Part shown: piece after piece, positions 2,867-32,379 of the stretch
How the letters are laid out: each line of letters starts with the position of its first letter
Numbering within the stretch: position 1 is the first letter of the stretch
DNA from: a virus
UHGV virus genome: UHGV-0235014
Strand: one strand, 5' to 3'
Length of the DNA stretch: 32,379 bases
Notes under the pieces: model-generated
What the model saw: only the letters and a program-made list of their open reading frames with translations
The model's database searches: none
Told to the model about the DNA's origin: nothing
Position numbers and translations under genes: made by a program

Positions 2867-3028
2867 ATGACAAAACGTCGTAAGAAATACCAGGAAAAAG
2901 AAGAGATTCGACACCCTGATTCACCTGAGGGATTAGTGGTTGCCGCAGCAAATAACAGGGCGTTCGCAGAGCGCCTTGTTGGTGTTTACAGACTAGCCAA
3001 AGCAGGAGTGAAACATGGGCGTCGTTAA
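2867..3028 (+). CDS. small basic hypothetical protein (53 aa) overlapping O start
   Basis: ATG 2867 with CAGGAGT SD; [53 protein letters not shown]; ends 14 nt into O gene; not in ORF track (short). Confidence 0.35.
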   Translation: MTKRRKKYQEKEEIRHPDSPEGLVVAAANNRAFAERLVGVYRLAKAGVKHGRR

Positions 3029-3836
3029 GTTAGCTGATTACAGGCCTCAACTGGAGGTCGTGGAGCATCGCGTGGCAGACACCGAAGATGGTTTCATGCG
3101 CGTTGCTAACGAGATTACCGACAGTCTGCTGATGGCTGATTTAACCGTCCGGCAGTTGAAGGTGATGCTCGCTATCATGCGCAAGACATACGGATTCAAT
3201 AAGCCGATGGATCGACTCACAAACACGCAGATAGCAGCCATGACAGGTATTCATCACACTCATGTTTGCGCTGCCAAGCGCCAGCTTATTGAGCGTAAAT
3301 TCCTCATTGCTGATGGCGTGAAAATCGGAGTGAACAAGGTGGTTTCGCAGTGGATTAGCCAGGACAGCTTAACATTAGCTAAAACAGCTAATAAAACATT
3401 AGCCAAGTCGGCTAATGGGTATAAGCCAAGTCAGCTAAACACAAAAGACAATATACAAAAGACAATAAATACAAATACCCCCTTACCCCCTAACGGGGGC
3501 GGCGATGGGCAGGTTAAACCTGAACGTCGCAAGGCAGAACGCATCGACTACGAATCCTTCCTGAACGCCTACAACACCGAAGTTGGTGACAGACTGCCAC
3601 ACGCTGTTGCGGTCAACGAGAAACGCAAACGCCGCCTGAAGAAAATCATCCCGCAACTGAAAACGCCAAACGTGGACGGTTTCAGAGCGTATGTCAGGGC
3701 GTTTGTGCATCAGGCCAAGCCGTTTTACTTCGGAGACAACGACACGGGCTGGACGGCCGATTTTGATTACCTGCTGAGGGAAGACTCGTTAACGGGAGTA
3801 CGGGAAGGGAAGTTTGCAGACAGGGGGATTGCATGA
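3015..3836 (+). CDS. O: replication initiator O-like protein (origin-binding; P22 gene 18 / lambda O family)
   Basis: 273 aa; N-domain ..DLT.RQ.KV.LAI.RKTYG.NKPMDR.T..Q.. parallels lambda O iteron-binding domain; internal iteron/AT-rich origin; followed by helicase with ATGA overlap. Confidence 0.85.
3372..3478. repeat. putative replication origin: iteron-like repeats plus AT-rich tract inside O
   Basis: Three related ~18-19 bp units ATTAGCTAAAACAGCTAAT / ATTAGCCAAGTCGGCTAAT / ATAAGCCAAGTCAGCTAAA (3374..3439) followed by A-rich stretch ACAAAAGACAATATACAAAAGACAATAAATACAAATAC. Confidence 0.55.
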
Positions 3837-5209
3837 AACAGGATATCGAAGCGAGCGTTATCGGTGGCCTGCTGATTGGTGGATTAACACCAACCGCCAG
3901 CGACGTTCTGGCAACGCTGGAGCCGGAAGCGTTTTCAATTCCGCTCTACCGGAAAGCCTTCGAGGTTATCCGCAAGCAGGCGCGAAACAGAAACCTAATC
4001 GACGCGCTGATGGTTGCCGAGGCGTGCGGAGAGGAGCATTTCACGTCAATCCTGATGACCAGCAAAAACTGCCCGAGTGCCGCAAACCTGAAGGGATATG
4101 CCGGAATGGTCGCGGATAACTATCACCGCCGTCTGGTGCTGGAAATCATGGATGAAATGCGTGAACCAATTCAGAGCGGAACCATCGATACATCGAGTCA
4201 GGCGATGGACGAGCTTGTAAAGCGTCTTTCAGCCATCAGAAAGCCCCGTGACGAGGTTAAACCTGTACGGTTAGGGGAAATCATTACTGACTACACTGAC
4301 ACGCTTGACAGGCGTCTGAGGAACGGAGAAGAGTCAGATACCCTGAAGACCGGAATCGAAGAACTTGACGCCATCACCGGAGGGATGAACGCGGAAGACC
4401 TGGTGATAATCGCTGCTCGTCCTGGTATGGGGAAAACCGAACTGGCGCTGAAGATTGCCGAAGGCGTTGCAAGCCGCGTTATTCCTGGTTCTGACGTCAG
4501 GCGTGGAGTATTGATTTTCTCGATGGAAATGAGCGCATTGCAGATTGCAGAGCGAAGCATCGCCAACGCCGGGAGGATGTCGGTTAGCGTGCTGCGAAAT
4601 CCTGCATCGATGGATGACGAAGGCTGGGCGCGCGTTGCTAACGGCATGAGTCAGCTTGCAGATTTGGATGTATGGGTGGTCGATGCCTCGCGGTTATCGG
4701 TCGAAGAAATACGCTCAATCGCAGAACGGCACAAACAGGAAAATCCAAACCTGTCACTCATCATGGTGGATTATCTTGGCCTGATTGAGAAGCCGAAAGC
4801 AGATCGCAACGACCTCGCAATTGCTCACATCTCCGGAAGCCTGAAGGCGATGGCGAAAGACCTGAAAACGCCTGTTATCTCCCTAAGTCAGCTTTCACGC
4901 GATGTTGAGAAGCGACCAAACAAACGCCCGACAAACGCAGATTTGCGTGATTCAGGAAGCATTGAACAGGACGCAGACTCAATCATCATGCTCTATCGGG
5001 AAGCGGTATATGACGAGAACAGTAGCGCCGCGCCATTTGCTGAAATCATCGTGACGAAAAACCGTTTTGGCTCGCTTGGTACGGTTTACCAGCGGTTCTG
5101 CAACGGACACTTTGTTGCATGTGACCAGGATGAAGCCAGACAGATTTGCACAGCATCAAATGCACCCGCTGCACGTGGCAGACGATATGCACAAGGGGCT
5201 GACGTATGA
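3833..5209 (+). CDS. DnaB-like replicative helicase (phage-encoded; P22 gene 12-like rather than lambda P)
   Basis: 458 aa; Walker [16 protein letters not shown], DnaB-type N-domain, RecA-like C-domain motifs; ATGA overlap with O. Confidence 0.85.
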
Positions 5210-25485: not shown

Positions 25486-26124
25486 TTAATTGCGAATGGA
25501 ATCGCGGAACTCTTTGCTTGATAGAAAAGGATCTGTTCTCCTTAACTCATCATAGTTTTTATTAAACTTTCTTGCTTCACCTGGGTATCTGTTGAACAAA
25601 ACATTGCAGAAAAAAGAGAGCAATAACTCACATATGAATGCTAATACCCTGAAAAATAAAGGTATAAAAAGAAGGGAAGGTTCATTGAAGTCTCTATTCC
25701 AAACAAAATAGACAATCATCCCGACATACCAAATTGATATCCCTATACTGATGATTGTTCCAACAGAGGTAACTACGATCCCGATTAAGTCGGACAGTCT
25801 GTTTGCCAGTAACTCATTTGAGTATCTTGCAATCATATACCGCCAACATTTTGCAATATCATCCTGATCTGTAGAGTCTTCTGGAATAGCTAGGCTTCTA
25901 CATATTGAAGTAGCTCTTTTTTTCTCAACTCTTTTTGAGATCCATCCATTAAAGAGATACATCAACACCTGCGTTGCTATTCCTGCACCAAGTGATATCA
26001 AAGACATCCCCAAAAATCTCCATCCTGGAGATAGTGACTGGTACTGCCAAACAAAAAAAATTAAAAAACCCAATGAGCCTATGACATAGGCTGATGTATC
26101 GCTATATATATCTATTTTTTTCAT
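25486..26124 (-). CDS. polytopic inner-membrane protein; candidate superinfection exclusion (SieA-position) protein
   Basis: Minus strand, ATG 26124 with AAGGAG SD; ~5 predicted TM segments; very AT-rich; downstream of and co-oriented with a repressor gene, between gp16 and the ant module where P22 carries sieA. Confidence 0.7.
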   Translation of the reverse strand: MKKIDIYSDTSAYVIGSLGFLIFFVWQYQSLSPGWRFLGMSLISLGAGIATQVLMYLFNGWISKRVEKKRATSICRSLAIPEDSTDQDDIAKCWRYMIARYSNELLANRLSDLIGIVVTSVGTIISIGISIWYVGMIVYFVWNRDFNEPSLLFIPLFFRVLAFICELLLSFFCNVLFNRYPGEARKFNKNYDELRRTDPFLSSKEFRDSIRN

Positions 26125-26188
26125 TGAGTAGCCACTCCTTAGTTTTGAGCAGAACACCGGATGATAATGTGTCGCTTCCTAAAGGATA

Positions 26189-26830
26189 TCAAAGCAACGG
26201 GATTTCAAGGTAAACTGCGGTTGCCAAAATACTAACATCTTCATTTCTAACAAGAATATTAGGATACATTGGGTTTAGGGATACTAAGTTTGTCTCTATT
26301 TCACCAATGTAAACCTGCTTGAAGCTCAATATTTGCTCTTTATCCAATGATGCTATTACATAATCTTTGCTTTTAGCTTTTACTAGAGGGCTGAACGTGA
26401 CAACTGATCCTCTGGGAAAGCTAATACCTGAACTTGTAGTCATAGCTTCACCTTCAATAGTCAATGCAAATGCAGAGTCACCAACATTGTATATTGCCGG
26501 ATGAAATCTAGACGATGAATGTTCACCTGTGTTTAGGTAATGCATAACTTCATCTAGTTTGAGGATTGGTATTTGCTTTACCAGAACGTCAGGCATGACG
26601 TTTTTTGTTCCAGGCCCCTGACCTTCACCCAGAGCTAACCACTCAGCCGTAGTGCCTAATGCGTTGGCTAATGCCTGCAATACACGAAGCCGTGGTTTAG
26701 CCTCACCACCCTCGTATGCAGCTATTTGACGTTGAACAACACCAGCTAATTTTGACAACTGCGCCTGCGTCATACCCCTGGACTGTCTTGCCAGAGATAC
26801 TCTTGATGGGAATTGATCGTCAAAATTCAT
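26189..26830 (-). CDS. CI/LexA-like repressor (HTH_XRE + S24-like domain with nucleophile Ser replaced by Ala)
   Basis: 213 aa; HTH MTQAQLSKLAGVVQRQIAAYEGG; C-domain aligns to 434/lambda cI but has GEAM in place of GDSM; Lys of FKQV retained. Confidence 0.8.
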   Translation of the reverse strand: MNFDDQFPSRVSLARQSRGMTQAQLSKLAGVVQRQIAAYEGGEAKPRLRVLQALANALGTTAEWLALGEGQGPGTKNVMPDVLVKQIPILKLDEVMHYLNTGEHSSSRFHPAIYNVGDSAFALTIEGEAMTTSSGISFPRGSVVTFSPLVKAKSKDYVIASLDKEQILSFKQVYIGEIETNLVSLNPMYPNILVRNEDVSILATAVYLEIPLL

Positions 26831-26861
26831 TAGTTCACCATAAAAAATTCATTGACTCATA

Positions 26862-26890
26862 CTGAGTGTGAGTGAATAATCAAACTACAA
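26862..26890 (+). promoter_or_regulatory. candidate promoter for arc-like/ant operon in divergent intergenic region
   Basis: TTGACT (26862..26867) - 17 nt - AATAAT; between divergent repressor and RHH genes; operator not resolved. Confidence 0.4.
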
Positions 26891-26929
26891 AAAGTGAGAT
26901 TATGAGTTTTTCAAAAACAGGAGTGCATA

Positions 26930-27103
26930 ATGACTGAAAAGATATCTTCCATCAAGCCGCGTCAGGTTCGTTTTACAGAAAAGGTTGATTCACATATCCG
27001 CGAATCAGCAAAAAGATGCCATAGGTCAATTCAGGCAGAGATAGCTTATCGAATGGAGTTATTGATGAAACTTGAGGCAAAGGGCGATGTTGTCATCCAA
27101 TAA
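26930..27103 (+). CDS. Arc-like ribbon-helix-helix protein (57 aa)
   Basis: ATG 26930 with CAGGAG SD; basic beta-strand PRQVRFTEKV then two helices typical of RHH; directly precedes antirepressor; short, not in ORF track. Confidence 0.6.
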   Translation: MTEKISSIKPRQVRFTEKVDSHIRESAKRCHRSIQAEIAYRMELLMKLEAKGDVVIQ

Positions 27104-27176
27104 AAATAGTGAAGCCCGGCAGTGCGCGAACACAAACCGGGCCTCTATGTCAGTAACCGTATGCAAGGAAACTAAC

Positions 27177-27803
27177 ATGAATATTGTAGCAAAATCAGAT
27201 TACAACTTCCACGGAGTTGAGTTGGTGCCCACCCGTGATATGCATGGTGTTTGGTTTACATCATCTAATATTGCATCTGCACTTAAATATGCAAATAGCC
27301 GTGCAGTAACAATGATTTATAACAAGTATAGCGATGAGTTTAGCGCCGGAATGACTCAGGTACTCGAAGTGAGTACCTCAGGAAATTATCGCAAAAAAGT
27401 GCGAGTTTTCTCACTACGCGGTGCCCACCTAATCGCGATGTTTGCTCGCACTCCGGTAGCCAAAGAGTTCCGCCGCTGGGTGCTGGATATTTTGGATCGG
27501 CAGGCAGAATGCTCACCGATTGCAAAACAGTTTACTGACGAAGAACTGGTTAATCTCTGCTACTTACAATTGTGGATGGAGAAGAGTCAACAAATGTGCA
27601 AACACATCTACCCAGGAATGAAGCAAATTGGTTCTGAGCTTTCAGGAAGAATTTACGATATTGCATATGAGACTCGCTATATGTCAGAAGAAACCAAGAA
27701 ATCACTTCTTCGTGAAATGAAGAATCTTGATACCAACAATTTTGTCGTAAAGAACGCTCAGCCAATGCTGACAAAACTGCGCGGCGAGGAATGGATTCAT
27801 TGA
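27177..27803 (+). CDS. antirepressor-like protein with N-terminal Bro-N domain
   Basis: 208 aa from ATG 27177 (AAGGA SD); YNFHGVELVPTRDMHGVWFTSSNIASALKY fits Bro-N pattern. Confidence 0.75.
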   Translation: MNIVAKSDYNFHGVELVPTRDMHGVWFTSSNIASALKYANSRAVTMIYNKYSDEFSAGMTQVLEVSTSGNYRKKVRVFSLRGAHLIAMFARTPVAKEFRRWVLDILDRQAECSPIAKQFTDEELVNLCYLQLWMEKSQQMCKHIYPGMKQIGSELSGRIYDIAYETRYMSEETKKSLLREMKNLDTNNFVVKNAQPMLTKLRGEEWIH

Positions 27804-27891
27804 TTGGTGCGCCGGACGGCGCAAAAAGAAAACCGCCAGTGTGCTGCTGGCGGCCTATGTCACACCCTTACTACCACATAAGGAATGCCTA

Positions 27892-28617
27892 ATGACTTTG
27901 AAGAATGTAGCAAACATCGGATCCGTTGTCACGGATAAAACCATTGACAGCCAAAGTCTTCTGATGATGGTTAATGAAGCTCGCAAGTTATGTGGAGAGC
28001 CATCAGTACGTAACAACAAATTCATCGAGAAAATTGAGGATGAATTGGAGGGCGAGACCTACACAAAAAGTGTAGGTCGGAAAAACGGGGCTGACATTGA
28101 TGTTATCTCCATGACTATCAAGCAGGCGCTTCGTGTTGCTGCTCGCGAATCTAAAGCAGTTCGCCGAACACTTGTAGACAAACTTGAAAGTATGCAAGAA
28201 GCGCACATTAAAAGCGGTAAATCGTCGAGTGGACTTGTTGAGTATCGCCAGGCACGAACATTGAAAATGACGGTTGAAGCTGTTACCAATCTGTTAGATT
28301 TGATGCCAAATCTTGCGCCGGAAGCAAAGCAGACTGCGGCAGCAAGCATAATCAACCCGATAGTTGGTTTTAATGCAATACCTCTTCCAGCAATAGAAGA
28401 GCATTACTACTCAGCAGGGGAGGTTGCAGAGCAGCTTGGAGTAACGGCAAACAAGATTGGTCGCATTGCTAACGCAAACAACCTCAAAACTGAGCAGTAC
28501 GGGAAGTTCTTCTTGGATAAATCTGCGCATTCAAGCAAACAGGTGGAAGCATTCCGCTACAATGCGGAGGGTGTTAAAGCACTACAACACCTGATTCATG
28601 GGAGCAATGTTGCATAA
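27892..28617 (+). CDS. hypothetical protein in ant operon (possible antirepressor/regulatory protein)
   Basis: 241 aa from ATG 27892 (AAGGA SD); not confidently recognised. Confidence 0.6.
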   Translation: MTLKNVANIGSVVTDKTIDSQSLLMMVNEARKLCGEPSVRNNKFIEKIEDELEGETYTKSVGRKNGADIDVISMTIKQALRVAARESKAVRRTLVDKLESMQEAHIKSGKSSSGLVEYRQARTLKMTVEAVTNLLDLMPNLAPEAKQTAAASIINPIVGFNAIPLPAIEEHYYSAGEVAEQLGVTANKIGRIANANNLKTEQYGKFFLDKSAHSSKQVEAFRYNAEGVKALQHLIHGSNVA

Positions 28618-28838
28618 TGGCAAAGAAAAGATATGGCATTATGCCGCCAAGAATCAAAGGAAGAGCCAGGGTAAAAGGAGATGCTGGAAGGTATCACATT
28701 CTTGGAGTTCTGTGGCATGAGAGAGCTTTAATTTTAAGTAGACCTCATGGGTACATTGAAAAGGTATCTATAGATAGAGTAGAGATTCTTCCCCTTACAC
28801 CTGAAGAAGAAGAAACGTACGGACTTTTTGATAACTAA
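28617..28838 (+). CDS. small hypothetical protein (73 aa)
   Basis: TAATG overlap with preceding gene; followed by strong terminator. Confidence 0.5.
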   Translation: MAKKRYGIMPPRIKGRARVKGDAGRYHILGVLWHERALILSRPHGYIEKVSIDRVEILPLTPEEEETYGLFDN

Positions 28839-28845
28839 CCAACTA

Positions 28846-28875
28846 AACCCGCTTAATTGCGGGTTTTTTCTTTTC
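28846..28875 (+). terminator. intrinsic terminator ending the ant operon
   Basis: AACCCGC-TTAATT-GCGGGTT followed by TTTTTTCTTTT; stop codon of the convergent mnt-like gene lies in the loop. Confidence 0.75.
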
Positions 28876-29110
28876 TAAGGATATCAGCCACAACTTCTTT
28901 TACTCGTTCCGAGATTAATGAGGCCAGCCTCTCTTCTTCATCACGATACCCGCTTACAGGTGATGGTTTGGAGAGTGATTCTTCCATCGTAGCCACAATT
29001 TCGGAATTGATAGACCTGTTATTCATTTTTGCACGTTGCTTAATCTTAGCGTGCAACTCGTGCGTAAGCCTCAAGTGGAACTGCGCCTCATCGTATTTGC
29101 TGTACATCAT
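28853..29110 (-). CDS. mnt: Mnt-like ribbon-helix-helix repressor
   Basis: 85 aa from ATG 29110 (GGTGAGG SD); ...NRSINSEIVATMEESLSKPSPVSGYRDEEERLA... closely parallels P22 Mnt (..NGRSMNSELLQIVQDALSKPSPVTGYRNDAERLA..). Confidence 0.7.
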   Translation of the reverse strand: MMYSKYDEAQFHLRLTHELHAKIKQRAKMNNRSINSEIVATMEESLSKPSPVSGYRDEEERLASLISERVKEVVADILRKEKTRN

Positions 29111-29242
29111 CAATGCCTCACCAAATGGGTGGAATGGCATCGTAAAACCTACTGTACAAATCAACAATCGTACCATTTCGGTATGCAACAAACACCAACC
29201 GTAGCCACGCTGCGGCGATTCCTTGTATCTGGAGCAAATTAA

Positions 29243-32188
29243 ATGACAGACATTACAGCCAATGTTGTGGTAAGCATGCCTTCGCAACTCTTCACTATGG
29301 CTCGTTCTTTTAAAGCGGTAGCCAATGGCAAAATTTATATCGGTAAAATTGACACTGACCCAGTAAATCCTGAAAACCAGATTCAGGTTTATGTGGAGAA
29401 TGAAGACGGTTCTCACGTTCCTGTTTCGCAACCAATAATCATTAACGCTGCTGGATATCCGGTATATAACGGACAGATTGCCAAATTCGTTACCGTGCAA
29501 GGCCATTCTATGGCTGTTTATGATGCGTATGGTGCACAGCAGTTCTATTTTCCCAATGTGCTGAAGTATGACCCTGATCAACTACGGCAGCAATTAGAAG
29601 ACCCAGATGGAGCGAATAAATACCCAAAACTTCAGATAGCAAGATGGAGAGACAGTTATGATGTAAGAGGTTGGGGGGCTATTGGTGATGGTGTTCATGA
29701 TGATACATCAGCTCTATCAGAATTACTTTCTGTTGCAACAGGTGGTGAAAAGATAGATGGGCGAGGGCTTACTTTTAAAGTATCAACTCTTCCAGATGTC
29801 AGTCGATTTAAAAATGCTCGTTTTTTATTTGAGAGAATACCGGGTCAGCCTCTTTTTTATGCTTCTGAAGATTTTATCCAGGGAGAGTTATTTAAAATTA
29901 CAGATACACCGTGGTACAACGCCTGGACGCAGGATAAAACGTTTGTATATGACAATGTCATCTATGCGCCTTTTATGGCTGGAGACCGCCATGGTGTAAA
30001 TAACCTCCATGTTGCATGGGTTCGCTCAGGAGATGACGGGAAGACCTGGACAACGCCGGAATGGCTTACAGATTTACATGAAAACTATCCCACAGTTAAC
30101 TATCACTGCATGAGTATGGGGGTTGTCAGAAATCGCCTTTTTGCTGTAATTGAGACGCGGACCGTGAGCGGAAATAAACTGCAGGTTGCAGAGTTGTGGG
30201 ATCGCCCAATGAGTCGCAGCCTTCGCGTTTATGGTGGTATAACGAAAGCAGCAAATCAGCAAGTCGCTTATATTCGCATTACTGATCACGGATTATTTGC
30301 TGGTGATTTTGTCAACTTCTCAAATTCTGGTGTTACAGGTGTTACCGGGAATATGACGGTGACTACTGTTATTGATAAAAATACTTTTACAGTTACGACG
30401 CAAAATACCCAGGATGTGGATCAGAATAACGAGGGTAGATACTGGAGTTTTGGTACATCATTTCACTCGTCACCATGGAGAAAAACCAGTCTTGGAACTA
30501 TTCCTTCTTTTGTTGACGGAAGCACTCCTGTTACTGAGATTCACAGTTTTGCGACGATTAGCGATAACAGTTTTGCTGTTGGCTACCATAATGGTGATAT
30601 TGATCCACGCGAGCTTGGGATACTCTATTTCTCTGATGCTTTCGGTTCTCCTGGTAGCTTTGTTCGCAGACGCATACCTGTAGAATATGAGGCGAATGCA
30701 TCTGAGCCATGTGTAAAATATTATGATGGCATTCTGTATCTGACGACCAGGGGGACATTAAGTACTCAACCCGGTAGTTCATTGCACAGAAGCTCTGATT
30801 TAGGTACATCATGGAATTCTCTTCGCTTCCCAAATAATGTTCATCACTCAAACCTTCCTTTTGCCAAAGTTGGCGATGAGCTGATTATTTTTGGCAGTGA
30901 GCGCGCATTTGGTGAGTGGGAAGGAGGAGAACCTGATAACCGTTATGCAGGAAATTATCCAAGAACATTTATGACCAGAGTTAACGTCAATGAGTGGAGT
31001 CTGGATAATGTAGAGTGGGTTAATGTTACTGATCAGATTTATCAGGGCGGAATAGTTAACTCTGCGGTTGGTGTTGGTTCAGTTTGTATCAAAGACAACT
31101 GGCTGTACTACATTTTCGGTGGGGAAGACTTTCTAAACCCATGGAGCATAGGGGATAACAACAGAAAATATCCTTATGTTCACGATGGTCACCCGGCTGA
31201 TTTGTATTGTTTCAGGGTGAAAATTAAACAGGAAGAATTTGTTTCAAGGGATTTTGTCTACGGAGCCACTCCTAACAGAACGCTTCCTACTTTTATGTCG
31301 ACGTCAGGCGTGAGGACGGTTCCTGTACCCGTTGATTTCACAGATGATGTTGCCGTCCAGTCACTGACTGTCCATGCAGGTACATCAGGACAAGTTCGCG
31401 CGGAAGTCAAACTTGAGGGTAATTACGCCATTATTGCGAAGAAAGTACCGTCTGATGATGTTACCGCTCAGAGATTAATCGTTAGCGGCGGTGAAACAAC
31501 GTCTTCAGCAGATGGTGCAATGATAACGTTGCATGGTTCCGGAAGCAGTACTCCACGTCGCGCGGTATATAACGCACTCGAACATCTTTTTGAGAACGGA
31601 GATGTTAAACCTTATCTTGATAATGTAAATGCTCTTGGTGGTCCGGGAAACAGGTTCTCGACAGTTTATCTTGGCTCCAATCCTGTGGTTACCAGTGACG
31701 GAACATTAAAGACAGAGCCGGTCTCTCCTGACGAAGCATTGCTGGATGCCTGGGGTGACGTCAGGTATATCGCTTATAAATGGCTGAACGCTGTCGCTAT
31801 AAAGGGGGAAGAAGGGGCGAGGATACATCATGGTGTAATCGCGCAGCAACTTCGTGATGTTCTTATTTCTCACGGACTCATGGAAGAAGAAAGCACAACA
31901 TGCCGCTATGCGTTTCTTTGCTATGACGATTATCCCGCAGTATATGATGACGTCATTACTGGCCAAAGGGAAATGCCGCTGACTGATAATGACGGGAGCA
32001 TCATTGTTGATGAGGATGATAATCCAGTGATGGTAATGGAAGACATCATTGAGCGCGTTGAAATAACGCCAGCAGGATCTAGATGGGGGGTCAGACCTGA
32101 TCTCTTATTCTATATCGAGGCGGCATGGCAGCGCAGAGAAATAGAAAGAATAAAAGCTAGGTTAGACTTAATAGAAGGGAAGCACTAA
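29243..32188 (+). CDS. tailspike protein: P22 gp9-like head-binding domain + endosialidase (endo-N-acylneuraminidase) + C-terminal intramolecular chaperone (S74-like) domain
   Basis: 981 aa; N-terminal ~115 aa conserved tailspike head-binding domain; Asp-boxes SGDDGKTW (30026..30049) and SSDLGTSW (30791..30814); C-terminal region with Ser-x4-Lys (VVTSDGTLK, Ser at 31694..31696) typical of auto-cleaving chaperone domains. Confidence 0.85.
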
Positions 32189-32340
32189 ATGTTTCGTTGG
32201 CGTCAAAAATATGAACTGCTCACATAAAGAAGTAAGTACATTGGCAAAAAACATTGACGTCAACGAAATTAAATATAAAAATTTAAATGCTTTTTAATGA
32301 CAAGAAAAGTAACTAGTGGTAAAATAACGTAGGATACTAA

Positions 32341-32379
32341 TATGTCAAGACTCAAGACTCAAGACTCAAGACTCAAGAC
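32341..32379 (+). CDS. neuO: polysialic acid O-acetyltransferase NeuO, 5' end only (continues beyond window)
   Basis: ATG followed directly by tandem AAGACTC heptanucleotides encoding RLKTQDS repeats, the published neuO contingency-locus signature; downstream of endosialidase tailspike. Confidence 0.75.
32346..32379 (+). repeat. AAGACTC heptanucleotide tandem repeat (phase-variation tract), truncated by window end
   Basis: At least four perfect tandem copies of AAGACTC plus a partial copy, beginning 5 nt after the ATG. Confidence 0.9.

Follow-up and report, generated by a model that had tools for sequence, protein, structure and literature searches.

The last 38 bases of the DNA studied here are, with a probability of about 96%, the start codon of neuO and the first copies of its AAGACTC repeat, a phase-variable moron which codes for a polysialic-acid O-acetyltransferase and which sits, in CUS-3-type P22-like prophages of E. 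coli K1, between the genes of the endosialidase tailspike and of the integrase. By the window we mean the whole stretch that was analysed, which has 32,379 nucleotides. The locus is already known and fully described, and the window adds nothing new on its mechanism; neuO was described by Deszo et al. in PNAS in 2005 and by King et al. in J Bacteriol in 2007 (both as cited in PMC3046976). Comparison with relatives strongly indicates that the element continues, past the end of the window, with the acetyltransferase body, intS and argW.

The start of neuO and its repeat

The window ends with TAGGATACTAAT, followed by ATG, TC, four complete AAGACTC units and AAGAC, the five initial nucleotides of a fifth unit. 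The start codon is read on the + strand at positions 32342-32344, with the two spacer bases TC at 32345-32346. The first part of the variable-number tandem repeat, the poly-psi motif, occupies positions 32347-32379 of the same strand; it was defined by TRF, a regex count, its translation and the annotation of CP000711. The AAGACTC register starts 2 nt past the start codon, which is 5 nt past the A of the ATG. The original prediction had described a tract 5 nt after an ATG and cut by the window end: this is exact if counted from the A, while the start coordinate given for the locus, 32341, was one base early. Since the window stops within the tract, the visible copy count is a lower bound.

TRF reports TCAAGAC with 5.0 perfect copies at 32345-32379 and a score of 70, the highest of all arrays in the window. 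Its extra partial copy comes from the TC which follows the ATG. A perfect run of 35 nt with period 7 has a chance expectation of about 5e-13, given the size and composition of the window. The 14-mer AAGACTCAAGACTC, a double unit, has no second site in the window when as many as two mismatches are allowed.

The second codon of neuO in the window is TCA, which gives a Met-Ser start, and the tract encodes in frame RLKTQDS heptads (translation MSRLKTQDSRLK). An AGGA Shine-Dalgarno sequence is found at 32331-32334, 7 nt 5' of the ATG, and there is an in-frame TAG four codons before it, at 32330-32332. In the other two frames ATG, GTG and TTG are absent from the last stop up to the tract. On the reverse strand, (GAGTCTT)n, each of the three frames contains a TGA. 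Therefore the array can be read through from one start codon and on one strand only.

Upstream of neuO, the tailspike gene is followed by an AT-rich intergenic region with 28% GC (32189-32341, + strand, from the sequence and its frames). The promoter scan gave five sites where 1.6 are expected; they are consensus matches, that is, predicted promoters. Two sigma-70-like candidates are located at 32254-32282 and at 32297-32325, the second one being ATGACA-17-TAAAAT with an extended -10 TG. No terminator was found by the terminator scan of this interval.

The identity of the locus is given by its relatives. Many E. coli chromosomes carry, at 100% identity, the 480 nt that run up to the window end and include the tract. 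Used as a query, this stretch has matches in 194 of 5426 complete genomes, always on the chromosome, and in 162 of them the match covers 80% or more of its length. Over the last 980 nt of the window the identity with phage CUS-3 (CP000711) is 99.3%. The annotation of CUS-3 at this place is 'neuO, poly(psi) domain' with 19 copies of the heptanucleotide repeat AAGACTC, after which come int and the attL core. The assignment to neuO was thus borne out, both by the identity of the flank and by the CUS-3 annotation. Two lineages of neuO starts can be distinguished: ATGTC (Ser2), with a 100% identical upstream flank, and ATGTT (Leu2, as in CUS-3), with 99.3%. The allelic site is position 32346 of the window and position 3947 in the CUS-3 locus (L001), and it co-segregates with the identity of the flank.

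PA45B and APEC IMT5155 share one arrangement, in which the tailspike gene is followed by the tract, the acyltransferase gene, intS, tRNA-Arg and yfdC. Both flanks of the tract are present at the expected distance in 157 complete genomes, and the acetyltransferase body in the relatives includes GTTTTCCGTTGATG. The allele of IMT5155, with n = 18 (ON), has an annotated acyltransferase of 258 aa with a Pfam Hexapep domain. Residues 17-258 of this NeuO match PDB 3JQY, 'polysialic acid O-acetyltransferase', with one conservative change (E = 1.3e-160), and the match takes in the RLKTQDS heptads. The objection that no in-frame acetyltransferase might follow the tract fails in all the relatives examined, in which a hexapeptide acetyltransferase matching 3JQY is found downstream. 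The GC content of neuO is 37%, to be compared with 47% in the window. ARAGORN finds no tRNA in the whole window, therefore argW is outside it; Rfam, at its gathering thresholds, finds no RNA family in the whole window either.

The prophage and its tailspike gene

The window is a P22-like (Lederbergvirus) genome. Its genes are ordered as N gene, immC repressor (1483-2115), replication, lysis, packaging, head, ejection, immI, tailspike gene and neuO. In positions 3354-3475 there are four 18-nt iterons similar to ATTAGCCAAGTCGGCTAA, with a spacing of 20-24 nt; after them comes an AT-rich 14-nt duplication. They are located within an ORF of 273 aa (3015-3836), immediately 5' of the helicase gene. 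This region looks like a lambdoid replication origin embedded in an initiator gene.

When the first 25 kb are compared with CUS-3, 65% of them align at 96.7% identity, in eight pieces (window 3462-24015). The immI region, at about 25.3-29.2 kb, is not that of CUS-3 and is 95.6% identical to phage JEP4. It contains a SieA-like gene (25486-26157, - strand), a second repressor of CI/LexA type with HTH_3 and Peptidase_S24 domains (26189-26830, - strand), two antirepressor genes (27072-27803 and 27841-28617) and an Arc-like ORF on the - strand, just 5' of the tailspike gene (within 25486-29242). Identity with CUS-3 returns, at 99%, from about position 29198, just 5' of the tailspike gene. By its sequence the prophage can be described as a mosaic relative of CUS-3, best called CUS-3-like. 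The original prediction of a CUS-3-like K1 prophage holds for the endosialidase tailspike and for the collinear P22-like genes, but the genome is a mosaic with a different immI and is not CUS-3 itself.

The tailspike gene is of the siaK1 type, codes for 981 aa and extends over 29243-32188 on the + strand; it was assigned from Pfam, PDB and its 99% identity with siaK1 of CUS-3. The Pfam matches are PF09008, PF12218, PF12217, PF12195, PF12219 and PF13884. The domains found are the P22 head-binding domain, the endosialidase N-terminal extension, beta-propeller, beta-barrel and stalk, and a C-terminal S74 chaperone. In PDB the matches are the endosialidases 3GVL/1V0E, at E = 0, together with head-binding domains of P22-type tailspikes. 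These Pfam and PDB matches to endosialidases support the neighbour that had been claimed for the repeat.

E. coli AR_0017 (NZ_CP024886; L142, 197-3549) has the same tailspike gene, in a prophage adjoining torT, and has no neuO. Therefore the endosialidase tailspike gene alone does not imply the presence of neuO. The similarity of this genome with the window, compared over 32047-32280, is lost after about 32280, so that the neuO module probably has its left edge near 32281, within the intergenic region.

The end of the prophage past neuO is seen in CUS-3 and in the relatives PA45B and IMT5155, with intS adjoining neuO and integration at argW (tRNA-Arg). An attR had been expected beyond neuO; this has to be corrected, as the CUS-3 record has attL past neuO and int. 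Among the complete E. coli genomes none has the whole arrangement of the window; the best ones are SCU-124 and A42, which at 99.4% identity cover 81% of the last 25 kb. The end formed by tailspike gene, neuO and int is conserved at 99-100% on a backbone which is 65% CUS-3-like. This is compatible with a module that may move between P22-like phages.

The window stops inside the tract and the body of the gene lies beyond it, so that one could think of a relic: the stump of a neuO which has been deleted, disrupted by an insertion sequence or rearranged, with no functional acetyltransferase after it. There are genomes with damage in this region. FDAARGOS_1296 (L141, 954-1651) has an IS1 between the 3' end of the tailspike gene and neuO; in AREA_R504 the best place matches the right flank only; in APEC IMT5155 (L003, 1-366) an IS66 transposase gene adjoins a tailspike gene which has lost its N-terminus. 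Such cases are a handful, against 157 complete genomes with both flanks at the expected distance. Furthermore, nine of 15 IMG/VR contigs are intact at the junction while the other six simply end in the tract, and the region upstream of the tract in the window is not degraded, being 100% identical to intact alleles. A stump is very unlikely, and we keep the reading of an ordinary neuO start. The persistence of neuO and intS while insertion sequences decay the tailspike end suggests that neuO is kept on defective prophages.

Copy number and reading frame

The number of copies was surveyed with a query made of 300 nt of the left flank and 300 nt of the right flank, with the repeat omitted, so that the span minus 600 gives the length of the tract. 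Of 88 distinct complete genomes, 87 have a tract length that can be divided exactly by 7; the exception is the interrupted tract described below. The number of units n goes from 5 to 57, with a median of 23; in the IMG/VR contigs with this gene start it is 8-32. In MS7163 our survey gives n = 21, the same value as published (PMC13001214); the published ladder of this strain has 93% at 21 copies, about 2% at 20 and about 5% at 22.

Polymorphism in steps of 7 bp is seen in the relatives, both between and within lineages. The 729_* isolates have 19 copies, 14 copies and one interrupted tract of 225 nt. Among isolates related by their strain names, AREA_486 has n = 5 and AREA_504 has n = 29, SCU-123 has n = 35 and SCU-108 has n = 25. 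Differences of this kind among isolates with related names are the expected signature of slippage. The interrupted tract belongs to 729_270514_x_12 (L139, 896-1139): it has 12 units, 22 irregular bases AAGATCTCGAGACTCAAGTTGC and 17 units. It reads in frame to a NeuO of 291 aa, which PGAP labels as a partial pseudogene. The interruption could be either a real stabilising change or an error of long-read assembly.

The frame rule follows from the relatives by direct translation, which places the enzyme body in frame +1 after the last unit. The sum 5 + 7n + 1 has to be divisible by 3, therefore only alleles with n divisible by 3 are ON. Translation from the ATG meets an early stop with n = 19 (CUS-3) and with n = 20 (PA45B). 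Thirty genomes are ON (n%3 = 0), and in all 30 the matched stretch overlaps an annotated acyltransferase gene. The other 57 genomes, 65.5%, are out of frame (OFF), in agreement with the published 65.6% OFF among 64 genomes (PMC13001214). The original prediction that a change in copy number switches the frame was confirmed by translation of single alleles and by annotation in these 87 genomes, in agreement with published work (PMC3046976, PMC13001214). An alternative start which would rescue the OFF alleles was considered and rejected, since the other two frames lack ATG, GTG and TTG before the tract.

Slippage kinetics, enzyme activity and phenotypes are taken from the literature. Slipped-strand mispairing in replication would produce the gain or loss of 7-bp units. 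As ATG and TC make 5 nt and the body is in frame +1, a full-length enzyme is obtained only from copy numbers divisible by 3 (ON), whereas any other number brings a stop about 3 to 18 codons past the tract (OFF). In ON alleles every three units add one more N-terminal RLKTQDS heptad. The outcome would be a heritable and reversible switch of the O-acetylation of the K1 capsule, which is itself the receptor cut by the tailspike of the same phage. The same unit, placement and frame rule have been reported, with three units for each RLKTQDS heptad and a catalytic efficiency which rises linearly with the number of heptads (PMC3046976). Experiments tie the copy number to O-acetylation (PMC3046976, PMC13001214): the reaction is an acetyl-CoA-dependent O-acetylation of alpha-2,8 polysialic acid and the OAc phenotype follows the number of copies (PMC3046976, PMC13001214, PMC8653822). 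O-acetylation by neuO alters the antigenicity of the K1 capsule and the resistance to K1 phages and to neutrophils (PMC13001214, PMC9659370). Where a neuO locus is recognised, the host can be identified as a K1-lineage ExPEC lysogen.

Transcription of neuO also depends on DsdC, which was reported to bind in a non-canonical way within the coding sequence of neuO; the authors speculate on an influence on slippage (PMC9659370). Besides switching the frame, the repeat tract might itself be a candidate regulatory target. If this were true, the copy number could alter transcription, or the binding of the transcription factor could alter the switching rate. These speculative readings, the tract as a regulatory target and the tailspike-neuO-int end as a mobile module, we consider unlikely.

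The array is a recurrent break point of assemblies, as it is at the window end, position 32379. Of 15 IMG/VR contigs with this start, nine show an intact junction and six (L005, L008, L013-L016) end inside the tract, with 9-13 copies visible. Because these contigs terminate in the array, their copy numbers are lower bounds only. A break in a perfect repeat would be expected of short-read assembly.

The fewer than five copies seen in the window might also be the whole array, collapsed or truncated by assembly, in which case the allele would be short and comparatively stable. Short alleles do exist: n = 5 is found in two of the surveyed genomes, n = 3 is found ahead of an imperfect unit in one locus (L006), and published ranges start at 2-3 copies (PMC3046976, PMC13001214). 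Against this, the six contigs which end likewise in the tract already show 9-13 copies, and the complete genomes have a median of 23. The window ends in the middle of a unit (AAGAC) and lacks the GTTTTCC junction, therefore at least one further unit must follow. We find a short allele improbable and retain the reading of a longer array cut by the end of the window.

OFF alleles are annotated in different ways. In PA45B (L002, 4898-5233) there is an 'acyltransferase' of 111 aa with an internal start. The only annotation in EC28, with n = 53 (L140, 1309-1917), has 202 aa and also an internal start; in CUS-3 (L001) no CDS is annotated. This inconsistency means that protein databases hold N-terminally truncated NeuO entries which are artefacts of the phase state. 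In practice, short-read contigs tend to break in the tract, OFF alleles appear as a truncated 'acyltransferase' or are left without annotation, and the ON/OFF state can be called only from reads which span the entire array.

AAGACTC repeats elsewhere and related systems

A scan for (AAGACTC)x4 in one genome per species was aimed at neuO-like loci outside E. coli. Among the matches listed in this species-representative scan there is no neuO. Perfect arrays of 4-18 units are found at more than 120 loci among the matches listed (L019-L138), in unrelated phyla: their hosts include Planctomycetota, Acidobacteriota, Bacteroidota, a Methylococcales sponge symbiont and others. With so many unrelated loci among the matches listed, the AAGACTC unit alone is not diagnostic of neuO. 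A contig labelled as an Enterobacteriaceae MAG (L060) was considered as neuO and rejected: it is GC-rich and has no neuO junction.

Two hosts stand out among the matches listed, with approximately 15 loci or more in each: Acidobacteria bacterium SZAS-13 (for example L038, L058, L071 and L084) and the Methylococcales symbiont of Iophon (for example L043, L046, L069 and L134). In SZAS-13 at least six tracts, among the matches listed, end 1-18 nt 5' of the ATG of an ORF with 99 aa or more. In two other loci, L117 and L104, the array is found 2 and 24 nt past the start of ORFs of 1959 and 1492 aa, a position similar to that in neuO. The arrays are often placed amid related heptamers (AAAGACT, AGGACTC, AAATCCG), and with AAGACTC removed the commonest period of the tandem repeats at the listed loci is 7. 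The arrays outside neuO may be unrecognised contingency loci or 5'-UTR elements.

One may then ask if the tract in the window is a generic heptanucleotide microsatellite without function, close to an ATG by coincidence. The arrays of (AAGACTC)x4 or more at over 120 loci among the matches listed, in other phyla and mostly outside convincing ORFs, are in its favour. We give this explanation practically no chance: the identity and frame data refute it. The flank of the tract is 100% identical to neuO loci, the tract lengths measured from one conserved flank to the other are multiples of 7, and the annotation follows n modulo 3. Moreover, the array has the chance expectation of about 5e-13 given above, no start codon other than the ATG, with AGGA 7 nt before it, leads into the array and only the sense strand is open, and in published experiments copy number is tied to O-acetylation (PMC3046976, PMC13001214). 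The functional start of neuO thus remains our reading of the window end.

The closest known system is neuO of CUS-3, from E. coli K1 RS218. The window shares with it the gene start, the AAGACTC unit placed 2 nt past the ATG, the upstream intergenic region (99.3%) and the neighbouring endosialidase tailspike gene (99%); the frame rule is shared by the relatives. They differ in the second codon, which is TTA (Leu, ATGTT) in CUS-3 RS218 and TCA (Ser) in the window. The CUS-3 record has 19 copies (OFF), whereas the window shows four full units and part of a fifth before it ends.

After 3JQY, the PDB entry which matches the NeuO body best is OatWY of Neisseria meningitidis (2WLC, E = 5e-31). OatWY lacks the heptanucleotide tract and the poly-psi domain, and its gene is chromosomal, in the capsule locus, and is not carried by a prophage (PMC3046976). 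Like NeuO, the enzyme of serogroups W-135 and Y is a left-handed beta-helix hexapeptide acyltransferase which acts on a sialic-acid capsule.

The oac gene of Shigella phage Sf6 is a serotype-converting O-acetyltransferase moron, placed near the integrase/tailspike end of a P22-like prophage. Like NeuO, Oac O-acetylates the polysaccharide which is recognised by the tailspike of its own phage. It differs from NeuO in being an integral-membrane acyltransferase with another fold, which acts on the O-antigen, and Sf6 oac is not known to have repeat-mediated phase variation.

Haemophilus influenzae lic1, with (CAAT)n, and Neisseria opa, with (CTCTT)n, are simple-sequence contingency loci of mucosal pathogens. 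As in neuO, their repeat lies in the 5' coding region and has a unit which is not a multiple of 3, so that slippage turns a surface-modifying function ON and OFF in a reversible way. In neuO the unit has 7 nt and the locus is carried by a prophage. A further difference is that the RLKTQDS repeat also tunes the efficiency of the enzyme, which makes it both a switch and a dial (PMC3046976). neuO is a classical simple-sequence contingency locus to which this 'dial' function has been added.
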